In this document: piece after piece, positions 2,892-57,238 of the stretch
Numbering within the stretch: position 1 is the first letter of the stretch
Layout: each line of letters begins with the position of its first letter
NCBI GenBank assembly: GCA_001723645.1
Contig: MDLC01000015.1
Location: 1 to 57,238, forward strand
DNA length: 57,238 nucleotides
Origin: Candidatus Endobugula sertula
Lineage (GTDB): Bacteria; Pseudomonadota; Gammaproteobacteria; Pseudomonadales; Cellvibrionaceae
Direction of reading: 5' to 3'
Program-made: the position numbers and the translations under genes
Notes under the pieces: generated by a model
Database searches by the model: none
Told to the model about the DNA's origin: nothing
What the model saw: the letters and a program-made list of their open reading frames with translations, nothing else

Positions 2892-3878
2892 TTAAAAAGT
2901 AAATGGGGATTCTACGCTACGATCAAAGAGACAAACATCGGCAATGTTACGCTTACCCGTTATAAATTTAATTAGACGCTGAATCCCTAATCCACCGCCA
3001 GCTGTTTTGGGGATATGATTCAGCTTCGCTAGGGATAAATAATTTTCATAAGGCTCGAAATCCATACCCAACTCCTCCATTCTACGAACAATACTATTGT
3101 ATTCATATTCACGCTCAGCGCCTGATAGACTTTCACCATACCCCTCTGGATAAATAAGATCAAAGTTACGATAGATGCCCACCGCATTCGGATCTTCTAA
3201 GTCGTAAAATTCCTTCTTGAAGCTTGTTACAAAAGCTGGCGCACTAGAACTATTGGTAACTTCCTGACATATTTCGTCTTCACTCCTACTGTCACCAATT
3301 GTTGTAATTCTCTCAAACGGCTCATCCCAATCTAGCAGCTCCCTACCTAACAACTGCAGTTCACTTTCACATTGGGCTTTTACAGCCTTAATGGTATGCT
3401 TAAATAGCATTTCGACAAAATCCATTACTTCATGCATGCTGGCATTTTGTATTTCCATGTCAAATTGAGAAAACTCTAATAAATGGTTTGAGCTTGATTT
3501 AACTTTCCTTTTTTCTAAACGAATATTTGGTGAAACTATATATAGTTTTTCAATACTTGGAGACATTAAGGCTAACTGCTTGTGAAAAATCATACTTGCT
3601 GTCAACTTCAGATTTTTTTCTTCGTACTTTATATCTGCCGAATAAACTGAATGATTCAGAGGATCTGTAATTGGAGATAGCAAAAGGGGCATAATTTGTT
3701 TAAATCCATGCTGATTGGCATAATTTTGCAGCTCAGATAAAACAACAGATTGAATATGTTGTATGGCTCCCACTTCATAGCCCATTTCACCTAAAAGCAA
3801 TTGCATGAATATAAGATTCCGGCTGTGACTATCAGACGGCAAAGTCGTTAGCACAACAATACCTTTATGTTTTTGCAT
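2892..3878 (-). CDS. Class II aminoacyl-tRNA-synthetase-like catalytic core (AsnA/AspRS/AsnRS type, no anticodon-binding domain) preceded by a ~40-aa B12-binding-domain fragment
   Basis: Motif-2-like NHLLEFSQFDMEI and motif-3-like GGGLGIQRLIKFITG. SPNIRLEK and GESLSGAEREYEY also fit AspRS/AsnRS cores. The N-terminus KGIVVLTTLPSDSHSRNLI..GYEV resembles the start of glutamate mutase S (DxHxxG region) and then stops. An alternative upstream ATG lies at 3908. Confidence 0.65.
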   Translation of the reverse strand: MQKHKGIVVLTTLPSDSHSRNLIFMQLLLGEMGYEVGAIQHIQSVVLSELQNYANQHGFKQIMPLLLSPITDPLNHSVYSADIKYEEKNLKLTASMIFHKQLALMSPSIEKLYIVSPNIRLEKRKVKSSSNHLLEFSQFDMEIQNASMHEVMDFVEMLFKHTIKAVKAQCESELQLLGRELLDWDEPFERITTIGDSRSEDEICQEVTNSSSAPAFVTSFKKEFYDLEDPNAVGIYRNFDLIYPEGYGESLSGAEREYEYNSIVRRMEELGMDFEPYENYLSLAKLNHIPKTAGGGLGIQRLIKFITGKRNIADVCLFDRSVESPFTF

Positions 3879-3888
3879 GAGAAATTCC

Positions 3889-5148
3889 CTATACCATATT
3901 GAAATCATATTTGAATTTATTAAATGAAAGCATATTCAGCAGATCGGAGGACGATAGCAGTTTCTTTTTTTTATAGATGGTGTTTTTAAGGTAATCTGGA
4001 AAGGGTATCTTCCCGACTTCCGCCCATTGAATACTGCCTGCATGGTCAACCCAAGAGCTTGCCAATTTTTTATTGTCATTGTGTAAACAGTACGGGATAT
4101 CTAAGTAACCTTTTTTAAAAGACAACTCTATCGCGCTGCCTATATCAGATGATGTATTCAATACGGCGCTAACAATTGATCTTGCCTGCTGAAAAATAAT
4201 TTCACTATTCCAATGAATTTTAGACTCTTCAACAAAACACTTCTTATTTTCTGCATTTGAAGCCCACTCTATGGCCATGACATTATCTTGTATTGATGGA
4301 ATACCATGCGCTTCTGATGCAGTTTTTACAATTAATCGAGGTATACCTGCCCGCTTTGCAATCCATGTACTATCCTCAATAATGGATTTTGCACCTGACT
4401 CTGTTGCAGGGAACATCCCCATAAATGTATACATAACTATATGCCAAGTAGTGGGCTGCAAAAATTCTTCTGCTAGTAACTGTAACGCAGCTAGAGCTCC
4501 TAAATCCTGCTCCAAATTTGACCCTTGCGCATAACTCAATGAAACTGAGGACACTCCATTGGCCTGCATAAACATGCATTCCAAAACTGTTATGGCAACA
4601 AGCATTGATGGAGGGCATAACTGACCAAGTAAACAACCGCCAAAAGACTCGATATGCAGAGGACGCGTACTTGTTGAGTTCTCACCGAATAACTGACAGC
4701 TTTCCGCCCAAGCTTTAACACTTGCTTTCAATGGCTCCCTACCATAAGGCATACAATATGATATTGGTCCTCCTTCAGTTGCATCTAAACCCATTTCTAA
4801 AATAGATTTAAAAATTTCTATTGGCTTTGCACAACCATGCCGAACCTGTATAGAAAAATCAGAATCAAAAATACCGTCAATAAGCGAGGCATTTTCATTT
4901 TTTTCAAAAGAAACTATGGGATAACCATTCAACTCTTTTTTCATTTCTACTGCTTCTTTTGCTGTAGAAAATTTTAACTGCCTTGTAAAGCTATCTATGG
5001 TTATAGTTCCTACGGTAGAGAACCCACAATGCTTAACTGCCAATAAGCCTGTCCTCATTTGCTCCGGCGATGAAAAAACCATCCTCGGCTGAAGCAAAAG
5101 GTGACCCTTCTCAATAGCCGCAGTTATAAAGTTATGAAAACTACTCAT
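3889..5148 (-). CDS. Methylaspartate (glutamate) mutase E-subunit-like protein
   Basis: Colinear blocks recalled from clostridial GlmE/MutE: QPRMV.., TIDSFTRQ, LNGYPIV, RHGCAKP, EGGPISYCMPYG, CPPSM, FMGMFP..ESGA, LIVKTASEAHGIPS. Confidence 0.75.
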   Translation of the reverse strand: MSSFHNFITAAIEKGHLLLQPRMVFSSPEQMRTGLLAVKHCGFSTVGTITIDSFTRQLKFSTAKEAVEMKKELNGYPIVSFEKNENASLIDGIFDSDFSIQVRHGCAKPIEIFKSILEMGLDATEGGPISYCMPYGREPLKASVKAWAESCQLFGENSTSTRPLHIESFGGCLLGQLCPPSMLVAITVLECMFMQANGVSSVSLSYAQGSNLEQDLGALAALQLLAEEFLQPTTWHIVMYTFMGMFPATESGAKSIIEDSTWIAKRAGIPRLIVKTASEAHGIPSIQDNVMAIEWASNAENKKCFVEESKIHWNSEIIFQQARSIVSAVLNTSSDIGSAIELSFKKGYLDIPYCLHNDNKKLASSWVDHAGSIQWAEVGKIPFPDYLKNTIYKKKKLLSSSDLLNMLSFNKFKYDFNMV

Positions 5149-5604
5149 TTGGTCAAGTCTCTTTTACTGAAGCATTCGTAAACGGGCTAATCCAGACAGT
5201 GCTTAATTCAGAATTCTTATTTTCTGATCACTACTAAAGCGATAAGCAGTTTTTTGGCGCAAAAATAATTTCTTTATGGTATAGCGCTATCAAGTAGTAA
5301 TCTTGCATTATTCTATTCCTTTTCGCTCAGGCGAAATTTGCTTGCTGTATCGATAAACCTTATTTGATATTTTATACCACACATACCAAAACATTCAGTC
5401 AACTATACTGTGAGCACTTGGATTCAAACTGTTATAGATCTTATCTTCTTTGGATAACAGCCAATTTCTACAAGCACTCTTAGCTAAAATATTCTAAATA
5501 CTGTACTCTGAAAATACTTTAATGTCTTCCACCTAAACCATGCTTTTATAAACTTAGAGCAGCAGAGCGCATTATAAACAGCCCCCCAATCGTACGATTG
5601 TTAA

Positions 5605-5754
5605 AGCTGAGAGTGTTTGTTTAAATCAGTTTTGAGAATCGTCCTGAGAGGAGCGATATCCTATCCACAACAAGTTACCTGCTCGCACGACCATTAGCTG
5701 GGAGCTATTTGTTTAAATCAGCTTTGGGAATCGCCCTGAGAGGAACAACATCCC
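5605..5754. repeat. Two tandem copies (91-bp period) of a ~57-bp element in the intergenic region upstream of the mutase-like operon
   Basis: Copy 1, starting at 5605: agctgagagtgtttgtttaaatcagttttgagaatcgtcctgagaggagcgatatcc. Copy 2, starting at 5696: agctgggagctatttgtttaaatcagctttgggaatcgccctgagaggaacaacatcc. Confidence 0.8.
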
Positions 5755-5991
5755 AAATACACCAATGATTTGAGAACATGCTAATACAATTATTTATCGT
5801 ATTACAACTTCTCTTTTATGGAAATTGATATACATCACAGAAAATAAAATTATTTTTGTTCACAATAACAATGCGGTAAACCCAATTTTATTATATAGAT
5901 GAAAAATTCTTTAATAATAAATAATGGCGATAAATTCAATGAAATATGCCCTGCTTTTTTTTGCTATTGCCTTATCGTCTTGGCTAATTGC

Positions 5992-36316: not shown

Positions 36317-36862
36317 TTAATTAGTTACCACGCAATCCAGGGGTACATCCCAAGGTTCTGGAGTAATTTTACGCACTTGTTGAAAATAATAGGCCACCCC
36401 CATCATCAGTGCACGACGTTTAGAACCACCCCTTTCAAAGGTTTTATCATAGTAGCCCCCTCCCATACCAATACGGTGATTGTACTTATCAAAAGCAACT
36501 AATGGTGTTAGTACCAGATCCAAACTGCAGGCTGCAATAATACTGCCAGAGACTGGCTCTAAAATTCCATATTTATTAGACTCTAGTGGTGTGGTGGGCG
36601 TGTAGTTGACGAAAGCCAAACGCTCCTTTTCTATAACGGGCAAATAACAGGTTTTTCCTTGACTCCAGGCTTTTTTCAACAGAAAACCAAGACCAATTTC
36701 ACCTTCGTTAGCTAGGTAAAAAGCAATATGACGACTTTCTCGATAAATCTCAGTCTGTAATATGTTCATAGCCAACTCATAAGAGGCTCGTTTTTGAGCA
36801 CCCTGGCCTACAGCACAACGTCGCCGACGCATATTTTGTCGAATAGCATTAGCTGGCAACAC
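36317..36862 (-). CDS. ygfA: 5-formyltetrahydrofolate cyclo-ligase
   Basis: IRQ..R.RR N-terminus, a GMGGGYYD motif, and synteny downstream of ssrS. Confidence 0.88.
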   Translation of the reverse strand: MLPANAIRQNMRRRRCAVGQGAQKRASYELAMNILQTEIYRESRHIAFYLANEGEIGLGFLLKKAWSQGKTCYLPVIEKERLAFVNYTPTTPLESNKYGILEPVSGSIIAACSLDLVLTPLVAFDKYNHRIGMGGGYYDKTFERGGSKRRALMMGVAYYFQQVRKITPEPWDVPLDCVVTN

Positions 36863-36964: not shown

Positions 36965-37145
36965 ACAGGAAAGTATCCCAAGAATGCCGCTGTCATAATG
37001 GCCTTGAACCGTGAAGTTCAAGTGGTGGTCTCTGGCAAGCATTAGGCTTTCCGTAGTACGGACATGCACACCAACAAGCACGAGAAACCTCCGGAAGTTG
37101 TAATATCGGCTCAAGGACGATGACTGGCAAACACCTCAGGACTCA
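36965..37145 (-). ncRNA. ssrS: 6S RNA
   Basis: The minus strand contains blocks matching remembered E. coli 6S RNA: CCTTGAGCCGATATT, GTTGGTGTGCATG, GGAAAGCCTAA and CTTGAAC..GGTTCAAGG. The termini are complementary. The conserved zapA-ssrS-ygfA synteny holds. Ends are approximate. Confidence 0.85.
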
Positions 37146-41580: not shown

Positions 41581-42474
41581 CTAAATTGATAGGCGATACC
41601 ATTGGGTATTTTTAATAGCCTTTAGATATCTCCTAGCTTTTTTGTGTTGTTCTAAAAACCTAGGACTTTGACTGGTTACTTCAAATCCAAATTGCTTTGG
41701 TAACTTTGTGTACATAGATTTGGGCAGCAATCCGTAGATTTTCTTAATTTTTCGCCCTGTGTCAAAAGTATGATAATAGATGGTCGAAATACCCAGCTTG
41801 TTGCGGATAAATTGAATAGCCGCTAGTAGTGAGAGTTCCGCCCATAATCTCTTATAAGGCTCTAATATGACTTCAGCATAGTGTTTAAATTCATTATACT
41901 CACAGTCAATACCATGGATAATATCGCCGGGTTTTACTGTGTTTTTCCCAGCATAGCACCTTGTAACACGCTGCATATCCCAGGTAACTCTACGGATCCA
42001 ATCATTTTGTACCTCTTCAATTAATGCTTCTCCTGTCGTAGGATCAAAATCTATTCTTACCCAAGATAATGTTTTGCGGTTATTTTGCCTAATAGGATGC
42101 CCTCTATATTCAAATGGGCCATAGCTATCATAAGGTTTTAGTAAACTATGGTAGTGTTGGTTATGTTCATTGCCAAAATTGATTTGTAAAACCAGATTTT
42201 GCTGATTTCTAGGTGTTTGATCATAACCTCTTTCGCTGTCACCCCACCGATCAAGTGTTAATGTAAAAGTTAATACATCATTGGGCCAGTAAGATTTAAG
42301 ATTATCTATTGGTAAATAACCATTGCCGCATCGTTTGATAATGTTTTTAACAATCGGTTTTGCGGCAAATAACTCTAAATAATAGCGATCCTTAAAATAA
42401 TGAAAGCCCCTTCTTTCATTACCTAAGCAATACAGTACATCCTCTAAATATTTACTCGTTAAAATCTCTACCAT
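41581..42474 (-). CDS. Uncharacterised protein, third gene of the rtcB-prfH operon (paralog B)
   Basis: 297 aa. The start overlaps the prfH stop by 23 nt. Shares long identical blocks with 39441..40397 but lacks about 25 aa near the N-terminus. Confidence 0.75.
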
Positions 42475-43135
42475 AAAAAGTACGTATAGGTTTACCCCTT
42501 TGCACTTCGTAGTGCTGTGACCATCGTGAACGTTCGAGTGATTTATTTTCTAAATCGTTTTGATTTGCCAGCAATAGTTGCAAACGCTCTAATGCGATTT
42601 GCTTATTTCTATGCTGGGAACGGTCTGATTCAACACGCACTTTTAAACCAGTTGTGCGATGAGTGATACGAACCGCACTATTGGTCTTATTGACATGTTG
42701 ACCACCTGGCCCTTTTGACCGCATAGTCTCCATATCGACTTCCTTCACTAATTCGTTGAACGTCTTCATACTATTACTAGGCATTGATAATGTCGCAATA
42801 CCCACGAACCAGTTGATGCGTTTATGCTTAGGTCGATAAGGGCTTTCACCTTGCCATTTAATAGTTCCTTGCCATTTATGAGCAAACCCATCAACCCCTT
42901 TGCCTTCTAAGCGGATCAATATCGACAAAAATGCATCAGGCTCAATCAATGTCTGATTTCGCAATAACTTATCAAATGCTAAGCTCTCAACGATTTCAGC
43001 AGACAGATTTTCTCTGTATGCTTCATCCAATAGAACTCGACTGAGCTGAGCAATAACCCAGCCGCATTCTTTAGGGCCTTGACCAGCCGTCAGTTGTAGC
43101 CATACAACTGACGATTTTTTATGCTTTGTTTCCAT
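42452..43135 (-). CDS. prfH: Peptide chain release factor H (PrfH)
   Basis: 227 aa. The RF-like GGQ domain reads [20 protein letters not shown] without a codon-recognition domain of RF1/2 size. Lies 2 nt downstream of rtcB, as in known rtcB2-prfH pairs. Confidence 0.88.
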
Positions 43136-43137
43136 AT

Positions 43138-44373
43138 TTATGTTCTCCGTGTTTTATAGGTGAGTAATGGTTTAAAGGTTGCAACGATATCAACCATACC
43201 GGCTTCCGCTAAGTCGCTCACCACCTGACTAATATTTTTGTAGGCTTGTGGGGCCTCTTCATAAAGTAGATCTCTTTGCTTACAAATAACACGGCTACCT
43301 AGTGAAGTTTTCTCTAAGTCTTTTACCTTAAAACGCTTTTCTAAGCGGCCTCGAGCATCACTGCGTTTCCATTTTCGGCCTGCACCATGTGCTAGAGAAA
43401 AACCTCCAAGAGCCAATGCACTTAGCTCATTAACTCTAGGTTTAACAAGATAACTTAAACTACCTCGAGATCCAGGTATCATTACTAAGCCCTTATTCGT
43501 TGGGCTTGCACCTTTACGGTGTATCCAATAACGTCTTTCTGAATCGATGTCTGACTTTGCGGCTGATTTTGCAGAAAGCCCCATTAGCTCAGTCTCAACA
43601 CTTGATAAAGCTTCAACCATATTGTGGGTGACATCGAACAAATAGCGTTGCTTTGTCTTTAACTGCTGACAAAAACGTTCTGCAATAAGTTCTCGATTTG
43701 CTTCAGCCCAACGGATAGCGTAATTGTGACGTTTTTGATACTGTTCATACTGATATTCATCTTGTATGGTTTCTAATGATTTTGAACCTAGGTTATCAAC
43801 ATGATCGCGAAGTATTTTTTGCCCTAAACCTCTAGAGCCGCTATGTACGAGTAAAAACACATGCTTTTTATCAATACCTAATCCATCAAATACATCACTA
43901 TCAATAATCTCATGAATCTGTTGCAATTCAGCAAAGTGATTATCGCCACCTATTGTTCCTAACTTGTGATGCTCTGTTAATGAAAAATCACCTTCAATTA
44001 TTAGACTGCGATCGCCCAACCATTCTTCCCTATTGCCATTCCATAGTTCATCAAGCCCAACAAGTTGTTTTTCCCATTTGTCTAATTTGACCTTTCTGGT
44101 CGGAATATCTAATTGCCATAAACCCATGCCACAACCAATATCACTACCCACCATATGGGGGTAGATACAGTTTTCCGTTACAAAAGCGGCGCCAATGGGT
44201 TGCCCTTTTCCTGGGTGTAGATCTGGCATACCAATACCGATACGCATACCCGGTAATTCCATTGTTTTTTTCAGCTGCGTAATGGCAGCGTCTTCTAACC
44301 AATTTTTGTCAGAGCTAATAATGCTCGTTCGACGATCCTCAGCTGTTTCGATATTTTTAAATAAAGTACTCAT
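43138..44373 (-). CDS. rtcB: RNA 3'-phosphate/5'-OH ligase RtcB (PrfH-associated type)
   Basis: [35 protein letters not shown] and HGAGR motifs. 411 aa. Confidence 0.93.
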
Positions 44374-44978: not shown

Positions 44979-46241
44979 CTATTGAGGAGCTATCTTATAC
45001 TGTGCCATATACCGCTTAATACTACCCAAACGTAACCGACGAATTTTCTCTGCTAATTTAAGGCCTTCATAGCCTTCACTTAGTAATGGCTTGATATTGG
45101 TATCTATAGCAACCTGGTTGTATTCGATTAACAATTGAGATTGAGGGTAATCTCTTTGCTCTAATCCTAAACGACCCCTAGCATCCGCTTCACAGGCTTG
45201 CGCAAAGTAACGTACACGTTCTGGTCGCCTGAACCCATCTAGTGCTTCCAATAGCTTTAATACCGATTTGGGACGCATTTCTAATAACTTATGACAACGT
45301 AAATGATGCTCTGACACTAGTTTTGCCAAGGTGCGAAAGTCTTTCGGTACTTTATAACACTCACATACTTTCTCAACTAAAGGTACACCTTTAATTTCAT
45401 GGCGAATATGACGAGGCCACTCTTCTTCAGGGGTAAGACCTTTACCCAAATCATGCATTAGTGCAGCCCAGGTCACGATTAGATCATCAAAACGCTCTCT
45501 GGCAATGTCCACGACCATCATCACATGATCACCCGTATCCACTTCTGGGTGATGCTGTGGGGGTTGCGGAACACCAAATAAACAGTCTAATTCTGGCATT
45601 AAAACCTCCAATGCACCACAGGCACGGAGCACTCGGAAAAACTCACTGGGCCGAGGCTCGGTTAATGCTCGAGACATTTCCTTCCAAACACGTTCCGGTG
45701 TTAATTCAGCAAGCTCGCCATTGTTAACCAAGTGCTTCATTAATTCTAATGTATTGGGATGCACTTGAAAATCTAACGTGGCATAACGTGCAGCAAAACG
45801 GGCTACTCTTAATACTCTCAATGGGTCATCAGAGAATGATTCTGAAACATGTCGTAAGACTTTATTATTTAAATCGGCTCTACCGTTAAACGGATCAACA
45901 TATTTACCTTCTAATGTCAGCGCAATGGCATTAATCGTAAGGTCTCTCCGAGATAGATCTTCTTCAAGTGTAACCTCGGGGCTAAAATCACAAACAAAGC
46001 CAGTGTGCCCCTTACCTGATTTTCTTTCAGTACGAGCGAGAGCATATTCATCCTTAGTTTCTGGGTGTAAAAAACAGGGAAAGTCGTTACCTATTTGTTG
46101 ATAGCCTTGCTCTATAAGCATTTCTGGAGTCGCACCGATGACTACCCAGTCATGATCTGCAACTGGGCGACCTAATAGCTTATCGCGTACCGCTCCACCG
46201 ACTAAATAAGCCTGAACACCAGTATTCTGTATATTTTCCAT
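44979..46241 (-). CDS. cca: Multifunctional CCA-adding enzyme (class II nucleotidyltransferase with HD domain)
   Basis: YLVGGAVRDKLLGRP..D.DWVV, ARTERK and RDLTINA, plus a C-terminal HD-domain region (LMHDLGK). 420 aa, like E. coli Cca. Confidence 0.92.
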   Translation of the reverse strand: MENIQNTGVQAYLVGGAVRDKLLGRPVADHDWVVIGATPEMLIEQGYQQIGNDFPCFLHPETKDEYALARTERKSGKGHTGFVCDFSPEVTLEEDLSRRDLTINAIALTLEGKYVDPFNGRADLNNKVLRHVSESFSDDPLRVLRVARFAARYATLDFQVHPNTLELMKHLVNNGELAELTPERVWKEMSRALTEPRPSEFFRVLRACGALEVLMPELDCLFGVPQPPQHHPEVDTGDHVMMVVDIARERFDDLIVTWAALMHDLGKGLTPEEEWPRHIRHEIKGVPLVEKVCECYKVPKDFRTLAKLVSEHHLRCHKLLEMRPKSVLKLLEALDGFRRPERVRYFAQACEADARGRLGLEQRDYPQSQLLIEYNQVAIDTNIKPLLSEGYEGLKLAEKIRRLRLGSIKRYMAQYKIAPQ

Positions 46242-46987
46242 TATATTGTTACGACTAAGTTCTCATTAAAGTTTGGGTTATAGCTATCTGGATAACCTCT
46301 TGGATTACAAATAATACGGCAGTTACCTATGGAGTAATCATAACTTTGGTGCAAATGACCGTGAATCCAAAGATTTGGACTGTACTCCAAAATAAAATCA
46401 TCTAAATCAGATACATAGGCAGCGCTCGTCATATCGCTTGCCTTTTTCTCTGAAAGAGACATTCTACTAGGGCCGTGGTGACTTATAACAACATTTTTAT
46501 ACCCTTTATAAGTGGTTAGTTCACGTTCAAGCCAATGAAGTGAATGTTTATGGATAATAGCCGTATCTATCGACCTTAATTTTGAGTACTTGGGAGAAAC
46601 TCGAATCTTCTTGTAGTCATTCATTATCTGTTGACAGTGAAAACCTGCAATCCGAGGATCGCCAAAAAGCTCAAAATCTGTCCATAATGTACAGCCAAAG
46701 AAATTAATATTACCTAAAGTAACCAACTCTTTTTCTAAAATATGAATGTTTGTGTCTTTAGCCATCGCTTTCATTTCATGAATATATTTCGGATACGCTT
46801 TACCGTAAAATTCATGGTTGCCTAGTACATATAAGACGGGTTTATCAGGTATATTTTTTAATGCCCACTCTATTCCTTTTCCTTTTACATGGATATCACC
46901 AGCAAGAATGACAATGTCACACTCCGGCAAGGTTAGTTCCAAATTAGCAAACTCTATATGTAGATCACTTAATATTAATAACTTCAC
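46241..46987 (-). CDS. Calcineurin-like metallophosphoesterase
   Basis: LSDLHIE, AGDI, GNHEFY, HHGP and GHLH motifs. The stop overlaps the cca start (TAATG). Confidence 0.85.
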   Translation of the reverse strand: MKLLILSDLHIEFANLELTLPECDIVILAGDIHVKGKGIEWALKNIPDKPVLYVLGNHEFYGKAYPKYIHEMKAMAKDTNIHILEKELVTLGNINFFGCTLWTDFELFGDPRIAGFHCQQIMNDYKKIRVSPKYSKLRSIDTAIIHKHSLHWLERELTTYKGYKNVVISHHGPSRMSLSEKKASDMTSAAYVSDLDDFILEYSPNLWIHGHLHQSYDYSIGNCRIICNPRGYPDSYNPNFNENLVVTI

Positions 46988-47052: not shown

Positions 47053-48207
47053 TTAAGCCTTTTTAGGGGCTAGAGTTACAAGCTCGTTAAGCACACCGCC
47101 TAAACCACCGTAAACAGAAATCTTATCGATTTGACCGGTAATTTTTTCGAGTGCTTCTAACTCTTTCAAGCGAAGCAATACTGGATTATTTTCCATCATC
47201 TTAGCAGTATTATGTAACGAACGCATAGCTTGAGTTTCCTCGCGGCGTTTGATCAAGTTAGCTTCAGCTTCTTTTTGTGCTTCAACCACTTGATTCAAGA
47301 TTTGCTTCATATCACCCGGCAAGATAATGTCTTTAACACCAACATTGACCAGCTCAATACCATAGTTAGCTAATTTTTCGCGAGTCGCTTGGGTAATCAC
47401 TGTGTTAAGTGTATCTTTATCTTCCAACAAAGTATCCAGTGATTGTGTACCCACCGCTTCACGCAGGCTTAACTGCAGCTCGCGATAGATAAAACCAGCA
47501 TAATCATTCACTTTTAAAGCGACGATTTCTGGATCTTTCACTTTATAGCTAGCGCTTAAGTTAATACGCAGGCTCACACGATCCTTTGTTAAAATTTTTT
47601 GACCACTTACCTCAACAGCTTGTAAGCGTAGATCTAATAGCTTAACACCAACAGAACGATTGTATTTCCAGAAGCCATAATTTCCAGGCTTTAAAATACT
47701 CTCGAGCTTACCATTAACGTTTAGAAGGCCGACGTGTTCATCTGGCACTTCTGCGTAAAGAATGGCATTAACTACTTCTCGGCTTTGACCTACTGTTAGG
47801 CCTCGACCTAGTAGATTAATCAACGACTTATCGATTTGGTAGTTCTCACTGATATCAATAATATCAACACGAACATCCTCTACATTTTTCCAAACGGTTA
47901 AAACAGAACCTGGTGCGAGCACACTAGCCAGCTTGTTATCTCGATACAGCAAACCGACTTCAGAGTCTTTAAGGTTAAACTGTTCAAGATAAGGTGCTAA
48001 TTTATCTGCATATTGAGTCATTAGGAACTGTGCTTTACGGTTCTTAAATAACACGTCGGTAATGTCATGAACGTCTACTGCCACTCGGCCTTGTGGGGTC
48101 GATACTCGGTGTCGACCTGGACCTAGTACACGTTTAAATTGATCACGCACATACAATAGAGCACGTTGATGATCAGCAATATCAATTGTCTTCCAGAAAA
48201 TCATCAT
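47053..48207 (-). CDS. SPFH/band-7 domain protein (slipin-like)
   Basis: 384 aa. A central SPFH-type region and a C-terminal coiled-coil QKEAEANLIKRREETQA. Confidence 0.85.
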   Translation of the reverse strand: MMIFWKTIDIADHQRALLYVRDQFKRVLGPGRHRVSTPQGRVAVDVHDITDVLFKNRKAQFLMTQYADKLAPYLEQFNLKDSEVGLLYRDNKLASVLAPGSVLTVWKNVEDVRVDIIDISENYQIDKSLINLLGRGLTVGQSREVVNAILYAEVPDEHVGLLNVNGKLESILKPGNYGFWKYNRSVGVKLLDLRLQAVEVSGQKILTKDRVSLRINLSASYKVKDPEIVALKVNDYAGFIYRELQLSLREAVGTQSLDTLLEDKDTLNTVITQATREKLANYGIELVNVGVKDIILPGDMKQILNQVVEAQKEAEANLIKRREETQAMRSLHNTAKMMENNPVLLRLKELEALEKITGQIDKISVYGGLGGVLNELVTLAPKKA

Positions 48208-48618: not shown

Positions 48619-48984
48619 CTATGCGTTGGAGGCATAGTTGTTTAGCGGGCTAGCGAATCGGTACACAGGACATTAAAAATGGCTGTGCCAGCCTGGCATA
48701 CGGAACCAGAGACACTGTTTCGTTAACTTGCGCATAAACATCGGTATGGAGTTAGACGCCAAAAAAGCGCCAAACTCCAAATACTTATCATCGAATATCG
48801 GAAACAACACTAAGGTGTTTGCCTTTTTCCTTATCGTACTCGGCAATTTCCATTTCTCCGTCAATTGGCGCTATTGTTACCAAATGATCAATTCGTGAAT
48901 ACATCTCTCCATGGTAGGCTTTTAGCTCGCCTTTTCCATTTTCATATCCTCATTGCTTATGAACTAAAGCCAATACAGTTTGGT

Positions 48985-49578: not shown

Positions 49579-49875
49579 CTAATAGTATTTAATAAAGTTC
49601 ATACCATCAGCCGAGCGATAACCATTTGTTTCTAACAAATGGATCATCGCTTGTCGTTTTTGTAATTGCCTTTCTGTAACAACTACATAAAGCGGCATCA
49701 ATTGTTGATGGAGTGCCCATGTCAACAATTGGTGCCCATTTTCGCGACCAACTAAATAGTGATCCACATATAGCTGGGTTACACTATTTTTAAGCAATTG
49801 CTTTTTTGCTTTTCTTGCATCGTCACAGAAAACATCTGCGAAACGGTTTTGATTTTTGCTAACAGATAAACGCAT
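49579..49875 (-). CDS. Hypothetical protein inside the tRNA array
   Basis: 98-aa ORF, 33 nt downstream of tRNA-His. No family recognised. Confidence 0.45.
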   Translation of the reverse strand: MRLSVSKNQNRFADVFCDDARKAKKQLLKNSVTQLYVDHYLVGRENGHQLLTWALHQQLMPLYVVVTERQLQKRQAMIHLLETNGYRSADGMNFIKYY

Positions 49876-50290: not shown

Positions 50291-51487
50291 CTAGCCTTTT
50301 ACGTTGACGATTTGACGAAGCGTATGAACAACGTCAACAAGATCAGTTTGGTTATCCATAACATCATCAATTGGCTTATACGCCATGGGAATCTCATCGA
50401 TTACACCTTTGTCTTTACGGCATTCAATCCCCTCTGTTGCAGATACAAGATCACTTACAGAATAGGTTTTTGCAGCCGCAGTTCGACTTAGGCGACGTCC
50501 AGCGCCGTGAGAGCAAGAACAGAACGATTCTGATTCACCTTTACCACGAACAATAAAACTTTTATCGCCCATAGACCCAGGAATAATACCCAAATCATCT
50601 TTTCTTGCGCGGATAGCGCCTTTACGTGTAACCCATACGTTTTTACCAAAATGGTTTTCCTTTTCCACATAGTTATGATGACAATTGATGGCTTCTTGAG
50701 TGACCGCAAACGCTGGAAGATGTTTACGTAGCTCCATCATCACTGCATTCATCATATGTGTACGATTCAATGCAGCATAATCTTGCCCCCAAGATACTGC
50801 TTCGATGTAATCATCGTAATATTCTGATCCTTCAGATAGATAAGCCAAATCTTTATCGGGCAAATGGATCATCCATTTTTCCATTTCACGTTTCGCGATC
50901 TCGATAAAATGCATTCCAATTTTATTACCGATACCACGGCTTCCTGAATGCAGCATAATCCATACGTCTTGATTTTCATCCAAACACAACTCGATAAAGT
51001 GATTCCCTGAACCTAGCGTACCTAACTGCTTTGCAAAGGCATCATACTTAATACGTTTACTTATTTGAGGATGCTTCTCGAAGATAGTACTTAAACGCAT
51101 TGAAATATCATGGCCACCTGCAATTTTAGGGTCACGATGTTTTCCGCCTGCCCCCAAAGGCACAACAGATTCAATACGACTGCGAATAGCTTTCAAATTA
51201 TCAGGCAGATCTTTTGCCTTTAGCGATAGACGCACGGCATTCATACCACAACCAATATCCACGCCTACTGCAGCAGGGATAATCGCTTTATCGGTCGCGA
51301 TTACTGAACCCACAGTCGCTCCTTTACCCAAATGAACATCTGGCATTGCTGCTACATGTTTATAGACAAAGGGTAAATTCGCTACTCGGCTTAATTGTGC
51401 CTGTGTGTTGTAATCAATATCATCTGTCCAGATTTTTACAGGCACACGCTGATCTTTATGCGTTGCCAATACTTTTTTAATGGTCAT
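50291..51487 (-). CDS. rtcB: RNA ligase RtcB embedded in the tRNA array
   Basis: MPDVHLGKG, GVDIGCGM, GSGNHFIELC, HSGSRGIGN, HNY and HGAGR motifs. 398 aa. Lies 30 nt downstream of an oversized tRNA-like gene and 40 nt upstream of tRNA-Thr. Confidence 0.95.
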   Translation of the reverse strand: MTIKKVLATHKDQRVPVKIWTDDIDYNTQAQLSRVANLPFVYKHVAAMPDVHLGKGATVGSVIATDKAIIPAAVGVDIGCGMNAVRLSLKAKDLPDNLKAIRSRIESVVPLGAGGKHRDPKIAGGHDISMRLSTIFEKHPQISKRIKYDAFAKQLGTLGSGNHFIELCLDENQDVWIMLHSGSRGIGNKIGMHFIEIAKREMEKWMIHLPDKDLAYLSEGSEYYDDYIEAVSWGQDYAALNRTHMMNAVMMELRKHLPAFAVTQEAINCHHNYVEKENHFGKNVWVTRKGAIRARKDDLGIIPGSMGDKSFIVRGKGESESFCSCSHGAGRRLSRTAAAKTYSVSDLVSATEGIECRKDKGVIDEIPMAYKPIDDVMDNQTDLVDVVHTLRQIVNVKG

Positions 51488-52138: not shown

Positions 52139-52293
52139 TGGAGTGCGAGGCTGGGTGAAAGAAGTGTTGTTAGCAAAGCACTGCTTTGTACTTCTTGAAC
52201 GCCCAAAACTTATAATTTTTGGCCGGCCCGCTTGCGGCAAACCAGCGTATACGGAGGTTGCAGCTCCGCGCATCGTCTCTCTGCCACTCGCAC
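52139..52293 (-). tRNA. Oversized (155 nt) tRNA-Cys(GCA)-like gene with an 87-nt T-loop. U73, CCA encoded.
   Basis: Hand fold: GTGCGAG TG GCAG AGAGACG ATGC G CGGAG CTGCAAC CTCCG TATAC GCTGG [87 nt, including AAGAAGT..ACTTCTT and AAAGC-AGT-GCTTT hairpins] CCAGC CTCGCAC T CCA. Acceptor, anticodon and T stems all pair perfectly. Confidence 0.6.
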
Positions 52294-52392: not shown

Positions 52393-52481
52393 TGGTCGTG
52401 AGGAGCGGGTTTGAACTCTCGCAGCACTCTTGTTACTGTGCGGATTAGCAATCCGCTGCCTTACCACTCGGCCACATTTCC
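52393..52481 (-). tRNA. tRNA-Ser(GCT)-like, probably defective (acceptor and T stems do not pair)
   Basis: Type II D-arm GCCGAGTGGTAAGGC, anticodon arm GCGGA TTGCTAA TCCGC, and a long variable arm. The 5' strand GGAAATG pairs at only 3 of 7 positions with CCTCACG, and the T-stem GAGAG/CCGCT is poor. Confidence 0.5.
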
Positions 52482-52987: not shown

Positions 52988-53173
52988 TTGGCACGCGGTG
53001 AAAGAAAAGTATCAAACCTCATCGAGGAGTGGAACGACAGCAATAAAATTGATCCTGAACGGCTAGAAGACCAGCTCACACCAGAGCGTTATAGGGCGCT
53101 ATTTGATACCCTCGTAGATTGGAATGACTATCTTGACAACCATGCACCGGATATCAAGGAGTTGTTGCTATGA
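52988..53173 (+). CDS. Small hypothetical protein upstream of mobC (start uncertain, TTG)
   Basis: The part of track ORF 52910..53173 that lies outside tRNA-Phe. Its stop overlaps the mobC-like start (ATGA). Confidence 0.3.
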   Translation: MARGERKVSNLIEEWNDSNKIDPERLEDQLTPERYRALFDTLVDWNDYLDNHAPDIKELLL

Positions 53174-53598
53174 ACAATTCTGCGAACCTCAAACAAGCGT
53201 TTGAAACCTCTAGCGCTCAAAATACCATCAAACCTAAAAAGCAGTATGCACGAACATTTTCTATGCGTCTTACGGATGGTGAACGTGATTTCTTAGACCA
53301 GCATAGCGGCTCTTTGTCATGGTCTGGCTATATCCGCAAGCGTGTCTTTGGTGAAAAAGCCGAAAAACGTCGCCCTGTAAAACGAGCTGTGCCAGATACG
53401 GCGCTACTAGCTCAAGTTCTCGCAGAGCTAGGCGCTTCCCGTTTATCTGCCAATATCAACCAACTGGCAAAACACGCCAATATGGGAACGCTGGACGTTT
53501 CGCCTGAAACTGAGCGCGAGATTGAAAGCGCCTGCCGTGAAATCCATACCCTGCGTATGCTGTTGATTGCTGCCTTGGGTGTTCAGCCAGAGGATTAG
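53170..53598 (+). CDS. MobC-like relaxosome accessory protein
   Basis: RHH-like N-terminal part (FSMRLTDGERDFL) and the ELGASRLSANINQLAKHANMG motif typical of MobC-family mobilisation proteins. Immediately upstream of the relaxase. Confidence 0.8.
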   Translation: MNNSANLKQAFETSSAQNTIKPKKQYARTFSMRLTDGERDFLDQHSGSLSWSGYIRKRVFGEKAEKRRPVKRAVPDTALLAQVLAELGASRLSANINQLAKHANMGTLDVSPETEREIESACREIHTLRMLLIAALGVQPED

Positions 53599-53600
53599 AG

Positions 53601-54734
53601 ATGATATTGCACGGCAATCAACGCGGCGGCGCTAAAGATATGGCGCTTCATCTTATGAAAGATGAAAACGAACATATTGAGGTGTACGAGATCAGAGGCT
53701 TTGCTTCTGAAAACCTCATAGGGGCTTTTAACGAAGCCTATGCCATTAGCCGCGCCACACGTTGTAAGCAATTCCTATACTCTCTAAGCTTAAACCCGCC
53801 ACCGGATGAGCAGGTATCTACTGAAAGCTTTAAAAAAGCCATTAATCAGGCTGAACAACGGCTAGGGCTGGATAATCAGCCCCGCGTTATTGTTTTCCAT
53901 GAAAAGCAGGGGCGTAGGCATTGCCATGTTGTCTGGTCACGAATTGATAGCTCTGAATTAAAGGCCATACGGCTTCCTTTTACCAAGTTGAAATTACGGG
54001 AGTTATCCCGCGAATTATTCCTAGAGCATGGCTGGGCTATGCCCGAAGGTTTGCGGGATTCCCACAACCGTGACCCGCGTAATTTTACCTTGGCAGAATG
54101 GCAGCAAGCCAAACGCACAGGCAAGAACCCCAAGCAGGTTAAGGCCGTATTCCAAGAATGCTGGAATATTAGCGATACACAAAGCGCTTTTGCCAATGCC
54201 CTAAAAGAGCATGGTTATATCTTGGCGCGTGGTGATCGGCGCGGCTTTGTTGCGGTGGATTTTAAAGGTGAAGCTTTCGCCGTGTCTAAATGGGTTGGCA
54301 TTAAAGCAAAAGACGTTAAAGCCAAACTCAACGAAGCGGATAAGTTGCTTCCATTTGCAGACGCTAAAGCACACATGGCAAATGCTATGGCGGCAACATT
54401 GCAAAAGGCTCAAGAGCAGCAAAATACCGCTATTCGTGAGCGCCAAAATCAGCTTGAGGCAAGACTTGAAGCCATGGCCATGCAACATAAGCAAGAACGC
54501 CAAAATCTGGAACAAACACAAGATATACGCCGTATTGAAGAAACCAAAACCCGCCAAGCCAGATACAGCAAAGGCTTACGAGGCCTATGGCAACGCCTGG
54601 ATAAGTTCAGGGAACAGGGGCAAAAGCATATCACTCAAGACATACAACAATACCGCGAAATCCAACAACATAAGCGGGATACGTTCAGCATGACAGACCC
54701 ACAAAAACATAGGGGTAGAGGGCTTGAGCGTTAA
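53601..54734 (+). CDS. Relaxase / mobilisation nuclease (MobA/VirD2-type)
   Basis: N-terminal relaxase domain with HCHVVWSRI (His-triad region), then a long Q/E-rich coiled-coil tail. 377 aa. Confidence 0.88.
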   Translation: MILHGNQRGGAKDMALHLMKDENEHIEVYEIRGFASENLIGAFNEAYAISRATRCKQFLYSLSLNPPPDEQVSTESFKKAINQAEQRLGLDNQPRVIVFHEKQGRRHCHVVWSRIDSSELKAIRLPFTKLKLRELSRELFLEHGWAMPEGLRDSHNRDPRNFTLAEWQQAKRTGKNPKQVKAVFQECWNISDTQSAFANALKEHGYILARGDRRGFVAVDFKGEAFAVSKWVGIKAKDVKAKLNEADKLLPFADAKAHMANAMAATLQKAQEQQNTAIRERQNQLEARLEAMAMQHKQERQNLEQTQDIRRIEETKTRQARYSKGLRGLWQRLDKFREQGQKHITQDIQQYREIQQHKRDTFSMTDPQKHRGRGLER

Positions 54735-54822
54735 TTAATTGGTTAAATTTGACTCAAACAGCAAAAAAGTTGTATGCTTAAACATATATGTGTTTATACG
54801 CTTATTTATAGAGGTAACTATC

Positions 54823-55059
54823 ATGACACGTTGGAGTCTTGTTGTTAATAACGAAACCGATCAAAGCTTACGTGCTTTTCTGGGTCAGAAAGGTGCGAAA
54901 AAAGGTGATTTATCCAAATTCGTAGAAGAAGCCGTACTGGATAAATTACTGGCTGAAACAGCAGAAATGATTAAAGAGCGTAATGCTGCCGATGATCAAA
55001 TGAATATTATGAGTACAGTAAATGAAGCATTAGAGGCTGTACGTGCGCATAGTTCTTGA
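54823..55059 (+). CDS. Ribbon-helix-helix antitoxin
   Basis: An RBS gaggt precedes ATG 54823. 78 aa with an MTRWSLVVNNETDQSLRAFL beta-strand start. Its end overlaps the PIN gene. Confidence 0.7.
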   Translation: MTRWSLVVNNETDQSLRAFLGQKGAKKGDLSKFVEEAVLDKLLAETAEMIKERNAADDQMNIMSTVNEALEAVRAHSS

Positions 55060-55459
55060 TACAGGCATTTTAGTTAGCGCATTAATCACCAAAGATACGC
55101 CGCCTGATTGGTTGTACCAATCATGGTGTAAACAAGCCTTTACGCTTGTCACCTCTGAAGAGCAACTGGAAGAAATAAAGCGTGTACTGTCTTATAAAAA
55201 GCTCGAACGTTTTATCAATCAGTCCGAAGCACAAATTCTGCTAGAAGCTCTCCACCGAAAAGCAGATATTGCAACAGACCTACCTTTTGTTGAACTATCA
55301 CCTGACCCTGATGATAACCGTATTATTGCCACGGCGCTGGCTGGGCAAGCGGATTATCTGGTATCAGGCGATAAGGCGGATTTATTGAGCCTTGGCATGG
55401 CTCATGATATTCCCATTCTTACTGCTCGGCAGATGGCAGAACGCTTGAAACTGGGTTAA
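55043..55459 (+). CDS. PIN-domain toxin
   Basis: IVLDTGILVSALI (the first acidic residue), D...D in DPDDNRIIATA and SGD. 138 aa, GTG start. Confidence 0.8.
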   Translation: MRIVLDTGILVSALITKDTPPDWLYQSWCKQAFTLVTSEEQLEEIKRVLSYKKLERFINQSEAQILLEALHRKADIATDLPFVELSPDPDDNRIIATALAGQADYLVSGDKADLLSLGMAHDIPILTARQMAERLKLG

Positions 55460-56147: not shown

Positions 56148-56336
56148 CTAAAATGAGGTATTAGGTACTTTTTTAATATAATCACGAACGGCGATGAGTA
56201 TAGGGCTTAGATCTTCGTCTTTGCTATGAATCATCTTCAAAACCGTATCCTCGCTATCGGCTAGATCACAAAGCATAGAGCCATACATTTTCATGTAGCT
56301 GCGGTATTTGCGTTTAAGCTGTGCTGGTGTTGTCAT
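56148..56336 (-). CDS. Small hypothetical protein downstream of the resolvase
   Basis: ORF from an internal ATG (MTTPAQLKRKY...). Overlaps the resolvase 3' end. Confidence 0.35.
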   Translation of the reverse strand: MTTPAQLKRKYRSYMKMYGSMLCDLADSEDTVLKMIHSKDEDLSPILIAVRDYIKKVPNTSF

Positions 56337-56925
56337 TGCTGGAAGTCCTTTTTTTCTGAGGGGTATATTCATTTAAGATGCGGCTGAGAGTGCGGGTAGA
56401 GATGCCAAATTCTTTGGCTATCTCTTTATGAGTGTATTGCTGTTGGGCTTTCATTTTGAGGAGTGCGCGGGTTTTACGCTGTGATAGTTTACGCCGCCGC
56501 CCAAGGTGTTTGCCGTTTTGTCGGGCGATTTCCAACCCTGCTTTGGTTCGCTCTGAAATAATATCGCGCTCAAGCTCTGCAAAGGCATTGCGGATGGTAT
56601 ACATGCACTTACCCATCGGGGTTGTTGTGTCGATAGCTTCCGTCAAACATTTAAACTCAAGGCCGCGTTGCTGAAATAAATCTAATACGTCTAGTGCGTT
56701 TCTAACCGAACGGAAGGCACGGTCAAATTTCCAAATCACCAGCACATCACCATACTGCATAGACGCAATAGCGCTGTCGAAGCCTGGGCGTGATTTAGCG
56801 ATAGCGGACACGCCCAAGTCTTCGAAGATATTATTCTGCTCACACCCTGCTAATATCAGGGCTTTGCGTTGTAGGTCTAAATTCTGTTCACTGGTGCTAA
56901 CCCGCGCATAACCAATCAAGGCCAT
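56314..56925 (-). CDS. Serine recombinase (resolvase/invertase family)
   Basis: MALIGYARVSTSEQNLDLQ (catalytic Ser), VWKFDRAFRS, and a C-terminal HTH HKEIAKEFGISTRTLSRIL. Confidence 0.92.
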   Translation of the reverse strand: MALIGYARVSTSEQNLDLQRKALILAGCEQNNIFEDLGVSAIAKSRPGFDSAIASMQYGDVLVIWKFDRAFRSVRNALDVLDLFQQRGLEFKCLTEAIDTTTPMGKCMYTIRNAFAELERDIISERTKAGLEIARQNGKHLGRRRKLSQRKTRALLKMKAQQQYTHKEIAKEFGISTRTLSRILNEYTPQKKRTSSNDNTSTA

Positions 56926-57238
56926 AAATCCTCCCATAAAATAATGTCTTCCCTATAACGGTAGACAAAACCGAACGTTTCTGTCTTATAGCCATAAGAT
57001 CACCCAGTCAATAAAAAAGAGAGAAAAAGGCGTTAAAAACGGGCGTAAACAGCCATTTTTTAAGCACAAAATAATCTTATGGAATTATGACGAAATCCTT
57101 CGATTGCGGCGGCTATTAATCTATTGATATTGCTTACTTTTTCTTGTTCTGTATGGGCAGATGCATATTCCACTCCAAGATGAACACCTTCTCCAATTGA
57201 AAATGATCACCCCCTGCGATTAAACGTGATCAGTCTCT

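Follow-up and report, generated by a model that had tools for sequence, protein, structure and literature searches.

How does a bacterial tRNA gene come to hold 87 nt between the two strands of its T-stem, and is the intervening sequence a spliced intron or a piece of selfish DNA? The question is raised by a tRNA-Cys(GCA) gene of "Candidatus Endobugula sertula," an uncultivated symbiont of the bryozoan Bugula neritina, which lies in a tRNA array together with a gene for the RNA ligase RtcB. The DNA analyzed here (contig MDLC01000015.1, hereafter the window) is the whole stretch of 57,238 nt, to which all window coordinates refer and which an exact protein match assigns to this symbiont; L-numbers denote comparison loci or contigs. 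Comparison with related arrays shows that the gene was invaded by an 83-nt element, here called type C, and we put the probability at about 50% that this is a selfish, DNA-level T-loop insertion that disables or cripples an accessory tRNA, and not a programmed intron.

The interrupted tRNA-Cys gene and the type C element

The gene spans positions 52139-52293 of the minus strand (155 nt) and was delimited by direct reading and by exon homology to tRNA-Cys genes of L209 and L003. Its layout from 52293 to 52139 is GTGCGAG-TG-GCAG-AGAGACGA-TGC-G-CGGAG-CTGCAAC-CTCCG-TATAC-GCTGG-[87 nt]-CCAGC-CTCGCAC-T-CCA. Exon 1 (52238-52293, minus) comprises the acceptor 5' strand, the D arm, the anticodon arm with anticodon GCA at 52259-52261 (loop CTGCAAC flanked by CGGAG and CTCCG), the variable loop, the T-stem strand GCTGG, and nt 54-57 (TTTG), while exon 2 (52139-52154, minus) supplies the T-stem 3' strand CCAGC with A63, the acceptor 3' strand CTCGCAC, U73, and CCA. 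A preliminary description of the locus, made from the sequence letters alone, had reported a 7/7 acceptor (GTGCGAG/CTCGCAC), a 5/5 anticodon stem (CGGAG-CTGCAAC-CTCCG), discriminator base U73, an encoded CCA, and a T-stem (GCTGG/CCAGC, 5/5) enclosing 87 nt. Direct reading bore out each of these, with exactly 87 nt at 52241-52155, and the features placed within this region (the 7-bp stem AAGAAGT/ACTTCTT, the hairpin AAAGC-AGT-GCTTT, and GGGCGTTCAAG) are all present.

The proposed Cys identity and the true T-loop insertion also held up, with exons that match uninterrupted tRNA-Cys genes of related arrays. Over 56 nt, exon 1, which keeps the host-specific U56, shares 87.5% identity (E = 2e-12) with a tRNA-Cys gene called by ARAGORN at L209 5574-5648, and it shares 84% with another at L003 9360-9434; at the 3' end, 15 of the last 16 nt match L209 tRNA-Cys. 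The gene sequence is identical across three independent assemblies, including two Logan contigs (L081/L082). The pattern at 52293-52139 is thus no product of chance but a true tRNA-Cys(GCA) gene: its exons match recognized tRNA-Cys genes, and the same DNA recurs in independent assemblies. ARAGORN, which called 12 tRNAs in the window, misses it, as does the Rfam tRNA model RF00005, even at E ≤ 10; in place of a canonical 7-nt T-loop with T54...A58, the gene has 87 nt between its T-stem strands and a substitute for A58. Since standard tRNA finders miss such genes, the content of these arrays is under-annotated.

The boundaries of the type C element (52155-52237, minus; 83 nt, CCGCAAGCGG...CTTCTTTCAC) follow from comparing interrupted with uninterrupted orthologs. 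In L209, whose RtcB is 92% identical to that of the window, a counterpart of the insert (L209 4424-4525; 78.8% identity over 104 nt, E = 2e-18) occupies the T-loop of tRNA-Glu(UUC) at the same position, after nt 57. L209 tRNA-Cys and L210 tRNA-Glu are both uninterrupted. The intact Cys T-arm of L209 reads GCCGG-TTTGATT-CCGGC, against GCTGG-TTTG[CCGC...TTTCAC]CCAGC in the window, and the intact Glu T-arm of L210 reads GTCGG-TTCGAAT-CCGTC, against GTCGG-TTCG[CCGC...TTTCAC]CCATC in L209. Type C is thus, on this comparison, mobile and T-loop-specific, because the same element sits at the same position of two different tRNAs while the orthologs are empty. A homologous insertion in a related element, on which the preliminary description had staked its reading, was therefore found, in tRNA-Glu rather than in tRNA-Cys.

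The left junction follows T-loop nt 57 (after GGTTYG) and leaves the host-specific nt 56 in place. On the right side, CAC replaces nt 58-60 and A replaces G63 in both hosts, so that the window Cys and L209 Glu genes share the flank CACCCA where uninterrupted orthologs have A(A/T)T-CCG; all five of the outgroup array tRNA-Cys genes have A58 and C51-G63. Because both hosts share CACCCA, this flank was brought by the element or by co-conversion. The right junction (TCAC-CC, 52153-52158, minus) places CAC at nt 58-60, and its AC-CC is pairable with GG.CGT (52204-52199). As the sequences stand, exact excision of type C cannot rebuild a canonical 7-nt T-loop, because A58 is lost and nt 58-60 are replaced by CAC.

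In the transcript, the element would fold into four helices, the first of which reaches into the host gene. H1 (52222-52246, minus; 10 bp, loop CGCAA), found with RNAalifold, pairs T-arm nt 49-57 plus the first element base with the element segment GCGGGCCGGC. Its element strand is GCGG(G/A)CCGG(C/U) across both copies, and the helix, which belongs to the minimum-free-energy fold, is kept in both through G-C/G-U switches that absorb the host differences. H2 (52203-52222, minus) is a hairpin, CCAAAA...TTTTGG, with a conserved TTATAA loop core and one compensatory A-U to G-C pair. H3 (52159-52196, minus) is the 7-bp stem AAGAAGT/ACTTCTT, which shows G-C to A-U and U-A to C-G compensatory changes relative to L209 and surrounds H4 (52175-52187, minus), the hairpin AAAGC-AGT-GCTTT, conserved in both copies; RNAalifold draws an overlapping 4-bp alternative (AGCA/UGCU) instead of H4. 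From the two precursors, RNAalifold also predicts a junction helix in which element GG.CGU pairs with AC-CC at the 3' junction. The segment GTTCAAG (52194-52200, minus), which the preliminary description likened to a T-loop, is identical in both copies and resembles one in sequence alone; this part of the description is unsupported because no stem flanks it.

Between the window and L209 copies, three pairs change on both sides and stay paired. Random placements of an equal number of substitutions kept as many pairs in 36 of 100,000 trials, in a test that involves two sequences only and a structure derived from those same two. The compensatory changes weakly suggest, on two independent copies, that the type C helices are under selection. 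Any fold forced to contain the acceptor and T-stems is less stable than the free-energy minimum, which uses H1 in place of the T-stem; the margin is 3.8 kcal/mol for the window and 10.4 kcal/mol for L209.

Searches with nhmmer and covariance models placed type C at the window, at the identical Logan contigs L081/L082, and at L209 4441-4522; across ~1.5 Mb of RtcB-linked loci (nhmmer and covariance model, including an unfiltered run), no further copy was solid. In phage and plasmid collections, the insert alone had no meaningful match, and the array as query matched through rtcB alone. Scans of viral contigs for the left junctions of type C and of the 75-nt family described below returned zero matches, scans for A-type and B-type motifs returned chance matches only, and a 23-base type C pattern matched metagenome contigs 16 times by chance, none of them in a tRNA context. 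A motif match in the viral contig L088 was rejected as an ordinary tRNA-Phe with a duplicated 3' end.

One further match stands apart. In a Marinobacter metagenome-assembled genome (MAG), L050 20865-21050 (minus) gives a 29.7-bit full-length match to the type C covariance model outside any tRNA, sharing CGTTC, a GAAGC/GCTTC hairpin, and TCACCCA with type C. The region forms a highly stable, leader-like structure of ~180 nt (z = -6.4) with a ~20-bp closing inverted repeat upstream of an open reading frame (ORF), and could be a distant relative of type C or a coincidence.

As for the host genes themselves, the array tRNA-Cys genes of the window, L003, L041, L067, L209, and L251 all lack the G18-G19 pair in the D-loop, and U56 is present in several (T-loop TTTGA..), which makes the elbow of these accessory tRNAs unusual. 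Array decay is exemplified at L002 9927-9984, immediately behind tRNA-Gln and a short way upstream of rtcB, by the remnant of a tRNA-Cys that has lost its D-arm and retains only the acceptor, the anticodon arm (GCA), and the T-arm.

Sister insert families

The preliminary description counted the tRNA-Cys insert as the third distinct insertion layout in the array, and correctly so: four other oversized tRNA genes there, all on the minus strand, carry inserts from at least two further families. A tRNA gene with a CAU anticodon (Met-type; 52629-52488) and tRNA-Lys(UUU) (51658-51518) hold 67-nt inserts of the same family in the T-loop at 58/59. That family is also found, reversed, in the anticodon loop of tRNA-Gly(UCC) (51818-51669), where nt 32-33 are lost, while tRNA-Asp(GUC) (52052-51911) has a ~50-nt element just after the anticodon as well as an abnormal 26-nt T-loop region. 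The Met-type and Lys inserts lie cleanly between nt 58 and 59 (GGTTCGA↓CAAAATGCCNGGAGCATTTTGA...GGTTA↓TT, with arrows at the junctions), and the L209 and L210 orthologs of both genes are uninterrupted.

Across the loci examined, the profile of the 75-nt family found copies in tRNA loops only. They follow GGTT(C/T)(G/A)A at 58/59 or CUACGA at 37/38 of tRNA-Arg(ACG), a target summarized as T(T/A)YRA, almost always in the sense orientation; the sole reversed copy, that of the window tRNA-Gly(UCC), follows TTGGA on the antisense strand. Because this family inserts cleanly, its exact removal would restore the loop. Its terminal hairpins covary strongly, with double changes in 14 of 15 pairs. That the family moves as DNA is indicated by its fixed short target and by the reversed copy, which RNA-level insertion could not yield. 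The motif GCGAAGC recurs in the third (central) hairpin of the family (e.g., L210 ~4790-4800); d(GCGAAGC) is an unusually stable DNA mini-hairpin, and its recurrence would hint at a single-stranded DNA stage.

The 50-nt family occupies the D-loops of tRNA-Thr, tRNA-Met, and tRNA-Phe of L212 and L211, and one free-standing copy lies at ~L209 4085-4140. The ~50-nt element of tRNA-Asp(GUC), with the hairpin loop UGCUCCUGC, has the D-loop inserts of L212 and L211 as relatives. The hairpin loops of the 75-nt and 50-nt families are reverse complements (GCAGGAGC and GCUCCUGC) and could represent a single DNA-binding site in its two orientations or, in RNA, kissing loops. Both families meet in L211 tRNA-Phe (L211 4853-5053), which has one of each, in the D-loop and the T-loop.

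A distant gammaproteobacterial MAG (L041, RtcB 62% identical) also has T-loop-interrupted tRNAs, at 3469-3630 and 5593-5767, one holding a copy of the 75-nt family and the other, tRNA-Ser(GCU), an 86-nt insert of another kind that follows GGTTCG; more than one genus is thus affected. Yet another insert type (AAAATACATCCAAGTATTTTGCCCTTCGGG...) lies in the anticodon region of tRNA-Pro-like genes at L209 5655-5799, L210 5692-5801, and L211 ~5740-5885, in all three of which the anticodon and the 3' strand of the anticodon stem were not found.

Several interrupted orthologs in related arrays have, to judge by their sequences, decayed. The anticodon stem is gone from tRNA-Phe of L209, and the anticodon loop of tRNA-Phe of L211 measures 6 nt. 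In L209, a deletion also affects the acceptor of tRNA-Arg(ACG), and tRNA-Glu, the second host of type C, is mismatched at C51.A63.

Selfish insertion, intron, or tRNA-derived RNA

Under the selfish insertion that we favor, type C would spread as DNA between the conserved T-loop sequences of tRNA genes, through target-specific transposition or else through recombination or homing in which the right flank is co-converted. In the transcript, the 5' part of the element would pair with the whole 5' half of the T-arm and its internal GG.CGU with the 3' junction, and since the element thus pairs with both sides of the T-arm, the T-stem and the cloverleaf would be out-competed. The window copy is most likely disabled or badly impaired, because with A58 gone exact removal cannot yield a normal T-loop, and no cleavage activity is recognizable; it would be tolerated in a redundant, fast-turning-over tRNA array. 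The decay of interrupted genes, the reversed copy in a sister family, the occurrence of RtcB without inserts, and the uncultivated symbiont host all speak for this reading.

Other observations pull the opposite way. The window Cys exons show no flaw, with the acceptor paired 7/7 and the anticodon stem and T-stem 5/5 each, and T51 pairs with the element-linked A63 where five outgroups have C51-G63, as if selection had maintained the T-stem around the insertion. The array holds RtcB and a cREC-like (receiver-fold) protein, a pair suited to sealing 2',3'-cyclic-phosphate/5'-OH ends, and according to ARAGORN it has no second Cys, Asp, or Gly gene. Conserved helices span the whole element, the pairing to both flanks resembles the substrate or guide helices of a catalytic RNA, and the G-U pairs of H1 form on the tRNA-sense strand only. 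To these we add that the inferences of selection are weak, with only two independent type C copies.

The alternative that survives best is a new bacterial tRNA intron, which we regard as possible, if doubtful. The insert would be co-transcribed, fold via its exon-pairing helices, be cut at both junctions, by itself or by a metal-independent RNase that leaves 2',3'-cyclic-phosphate and 5'-OH ends, and be sealed by RtcB with cREC. The product would be a working tRNA-Cys with a slightly unusual T-loop, ...GCUGGUUUG joined to (C)AC-CCAGCCUCGCAC. This could be argued on the following grounds: (i) RtcB and cREC accompany the array, side by side, in nearly every related locus for which that flank was recovered; (ii) the window exons are intact, with the 51:63 pair re-matched, in an array without any other Cys gene; (iii) compensatory changes preserve the type C structure, which pairs with both junctions; and (iv) the sister 75-nt family is clean at 58/59 and 37/38, would leave perfect loops on excision, and is almost always in the sense orientation. 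However, no ribozyme, group I, or bulge-helix-bulge (BHB) signature and no endonuclease candidate in the window accompanies the insert, A58 cannot be restored in a 7-nt loop, interrupted orthologs decay, one 75-nt copy is reversed, which is impossible by RNA-level insertion, and RtcB is also linked to insert-free arrays. We think it rather unlikely that type C and its sister families form a new mobile class of bacterial tRNA introns, neither group I nor BHB, that is sealed by RtcB/cREC, and rate as similarly unlikely that the T-arm is recognized by an internal guide helix and the element released by self-cleavage or by an RNase leaving cyclic-phosphate ends.

Rfam, searched on both strands at gathering and permissive thresholds, contains no family for the insert (array, 191-nt target, and L209 copy). 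A group I intron is not indicated in an 83-nt insert with no Rfam match at E ≤ 10 on the 191-nt query and no core of ~200 nt or more, and on the array, the 191-nt target, and the L209 copy, hammerhead, twister, pistol, hatchet, hepatitis delta virus (HDV)-like, and hairpin ribozymes likewise gave no match at E ≤ 10. BHB and hammerhead/HDV-like readings were also rejected by hand inspection, as neither fits the junctions; a BHB motif would require nt 54-57 to form a 4-bp helix with bases immediately before the 3' junction, and no such partner is present in the junctions and predicted folds inspected. The island ORFs scanned include no EndA-like splicing endonuclease. The ligase of BHB-type splicing, by comparison, is at hand, as one RtcB lies inside the array and a second is found with PrfH. 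Two neighboring genes were ruled out as agents: the 98-aa partner of RtcB as a splicing endonuclease, by its receiver fold, and the HNH gene as the driver of the inserts, since it also occurs in arrays without inserts and so does not track with them. The similarity of the HNH protein to IscB/Cas9 is confined to the HNH catalytic domain.

No transposase was found among the island ORFs scanned and no Y1 transposase (TnpA) in the 57-kb window. A classical miniature inverted-repeat transposable element (MITE) is not indicated, as the ends (CCGCAAGCGG... and ...CTTCTTTCAC) are not inverted repeats and the flanks GGTTTG and CCAGC are not duplicated. As regards the IS200/IS605 type, both copies have the TTYG target and no duplication, but six host positions are altered on the right side, and there are two copies only.

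Another reading takes the locus as an unspliced chimeric tRNA-derived RNA with an extra elbow domain, for example, a decoy or sensor for tRNA-targeting toxins. The conserved structure of the element and an island rich in RNA-repair and toxin genes (RtcB, cREC, PrfH-RtcB2, CCA-adding enzyme, PIN/RHH pair) lend it some color, and the tRNA-like noncoding RNAs of RtcB operons (YrlA) offer a precedent. We nevertheless deem it improbable, since type C is found in two unrelated tRNAs and the other families in many more, a pattern better suited to parasitism than to a designed chimera, and no host-plus-insert combination is conserved.

Last, a scar of att-site duplication left by site-specific integration or excision, for which a partial T-arm duplication is drawable (element CCGGC equals the ancestral Cys T-stem 3' strand) and a resolvase and relaxase lie nearby, is, like an assembly artifact or a chance stem pattern, very improbable and close to refuted by the L209 copy, as the same 83 nt recur with compensatory changes in a different tRNA of another genome, the insert is only 83 nt and neither the tRNA 3' end nor its acceptor 3' strand is duplicated as integrase att insertion would have it, the sequence is identical in three independent assemblies, and the exons have clear homologs.

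Among known systems, the behavior of type C is, by analogy, most like that of the non-canonical transposing tRNA introns of the Thermoproteales or of a target-specific MITE. Archaeal non-canonical tRNA introns, known from the Thermoproteales and their relatives, occupy positions that include the T-loop and show "intron transposition" between tRNA genes. The array inserts resemble them in size (tens to ~100 nt), in position (T-loop, D-loop, and 37/38, with several possible per gene), and in the presence of related inserts in different tRNA genes, and RtcB is the archaeal ligase. The archaeal introns, in contrast, are defined by a BHB and cut by EndA, whereas here no BHB is drawable, EndA is absent from the window, the host is gammaproteobacterial, and exact removal of type C fails to restore the T-loop.

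Bacterial group I tRNA introns share with type C the state of a mobile intervening sequence in a bacterial tRNA gene, and the 5' exon end pairs with an intron "guide" in a hairpin of P1 topology. Unlike group I introns, which measure ~200 nt or more, lie in the anticodon loop, have a P3-P9 core, and are detected by Rfam, type C is 83 nt long, lies in the T-loop, and has no Rfam match. The features of MITEs and of IS200/IS605 palindrome-associated elements are also close, namely, a noncoding length of <100 nt, strong hairpins, copies in different genes, no target-site duplication, and a fixed 5' target (TTYG for type C; T(T/A)YRA for the 75-nt family, with one copy antisense). Type C differs from them in having no terminal inverted repeats, no transposase in the window, and six replaced host positions; compared with IS608, its geometry does not match, as the hairpin begins 1 nt from the junction, and the whole element is structurally conserved, not the ends alone.

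The host loci resemble the published RtcB-linked accessory tRNA arrays in their linkage to or co-regulation with RtcB and RNA-processing genes and in the rapid gain and loss of members. They differ in that a term search of the paper on those arrays found no interrupted tRNA genes; RtcB is understood there as an enzyme that repairs cleaved tRNAs. Our literature searches found no description of such tRNA-loop elements.

RtcB-centered tRNA arrays of several gammaproteobacteria thus carry many small elements of conserved structure at the loop positions of archaeal introns. To our knowledge, introns of bacterial tRNA genes are thought to be self-splicing group I introns only, and what RtcB naturally acts on in bacteria is still under debate. 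Should the elements be excised, RtcB would have a splicing role in bacteria, with an easy experimental system; as an intron class, they would represent the first RtcB-dependent, non-group-I tRNA splicing in Bacteria, possibly with a new small ribozyme. If they are not excised, they would be selfish DNA of a class not yet described, specific to tRNA loops, by which accessory tRNA arrays are shaped and also eroded.

The array and its RNA-repair island

The tRNA array lies on the minus strand from ~53000 to 48500, within an island of RNA-repair and mobility genes that takes up about the final third of the window. Along the array strand, the island starts with a resolvase, a PIN/RHH toxin pair, a relaxase with MobC, the first part of the tRNA array, and RtcB; further tRNA genes, a 98-aa cREC-like protein, an HNH protein, and tRNA-Met, the last tRNA of the array, come next, and a Band_7 protein, a metallophosphatase, a CCA-adding enzyme, and a second RtcB with PrfH complete it. 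The preliminary description had suggested RtcB as relevant to processing, and an RtcB gene is indeed found inside the array (50291-51487, minus; Pfam PF01139, E = 1.7e-129; same position in related arrays), next to the cREC-type protein. The latter (49579-49875, minus) has a weak Pfam cREC_REC match, and its AlphaFold model (pLDDT 87.5) has receiver domains, not an endonuclease, as best PDB folds. The predicted receiver fold fits the proposal of a "cyclic-phosphate-processing REC," a family predicted in its source paper to process cyclic phosphates.

Close RtcB homologs (79-98% identity) occur in the arrangement array-RtcB-cREC-(HNH)-Band_7 in related Cellvibrionales genomes. The RtcB-linked arrays of L003 and L251 have no inserts, so the presence of RtcB needs no inserts as its explanation; tRNA repair explains RtcB in such arrays. 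The genes for PrfH with the second RtcB, the CCA-adding enzyme, the metallophosphatase, and the Band_7 protein lie at 42452-44373, 44979-46241, 46241-46987, and 47053-48207, respectively, all on the minus strand. PrfH and the second RtcB are a ribosome-repair pair, and together the genes next to the array form a large RNA-repair island.

A few minor observations concern the surroundings. At ~48673-48960 (minus), a 119-aa protein that is conserved in related arrays, where it lies between HNH and Band_7, is truncated, with only ~40 C-terminal residues in frame. Genes for MobC, a relaxase, an RHH/PIN (VapBC-type) pair, and a serine resolvase flank the array (53170-55459, plus; 56314-56937, minus), and given these mobilization genes, the array is here in a mobilizable element, while in relatives it lies beside ordinary chromosomal genes. 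A tRNA-Ser(GCU)-like gene at 52406-52481 (minus) scores 30.5 bits with Rfam and is missed by ARAGORN. Elsewhere on the contig, a 6S RNA (36971-37145, minus; 87 bits) adjoins a 5-formyltetrahydrofolate cyclo-ligase gene (36317-36862, minus), which we take to be the usual ssrS-ygfA pair and which suggests that this part of the contig is core chromosome. In other loci, a small ORF for ArfA, an alternative ribosome-rescue factor, lies inside the arrays of L243, L250, and L251 (e.g., L243 4162-4302).

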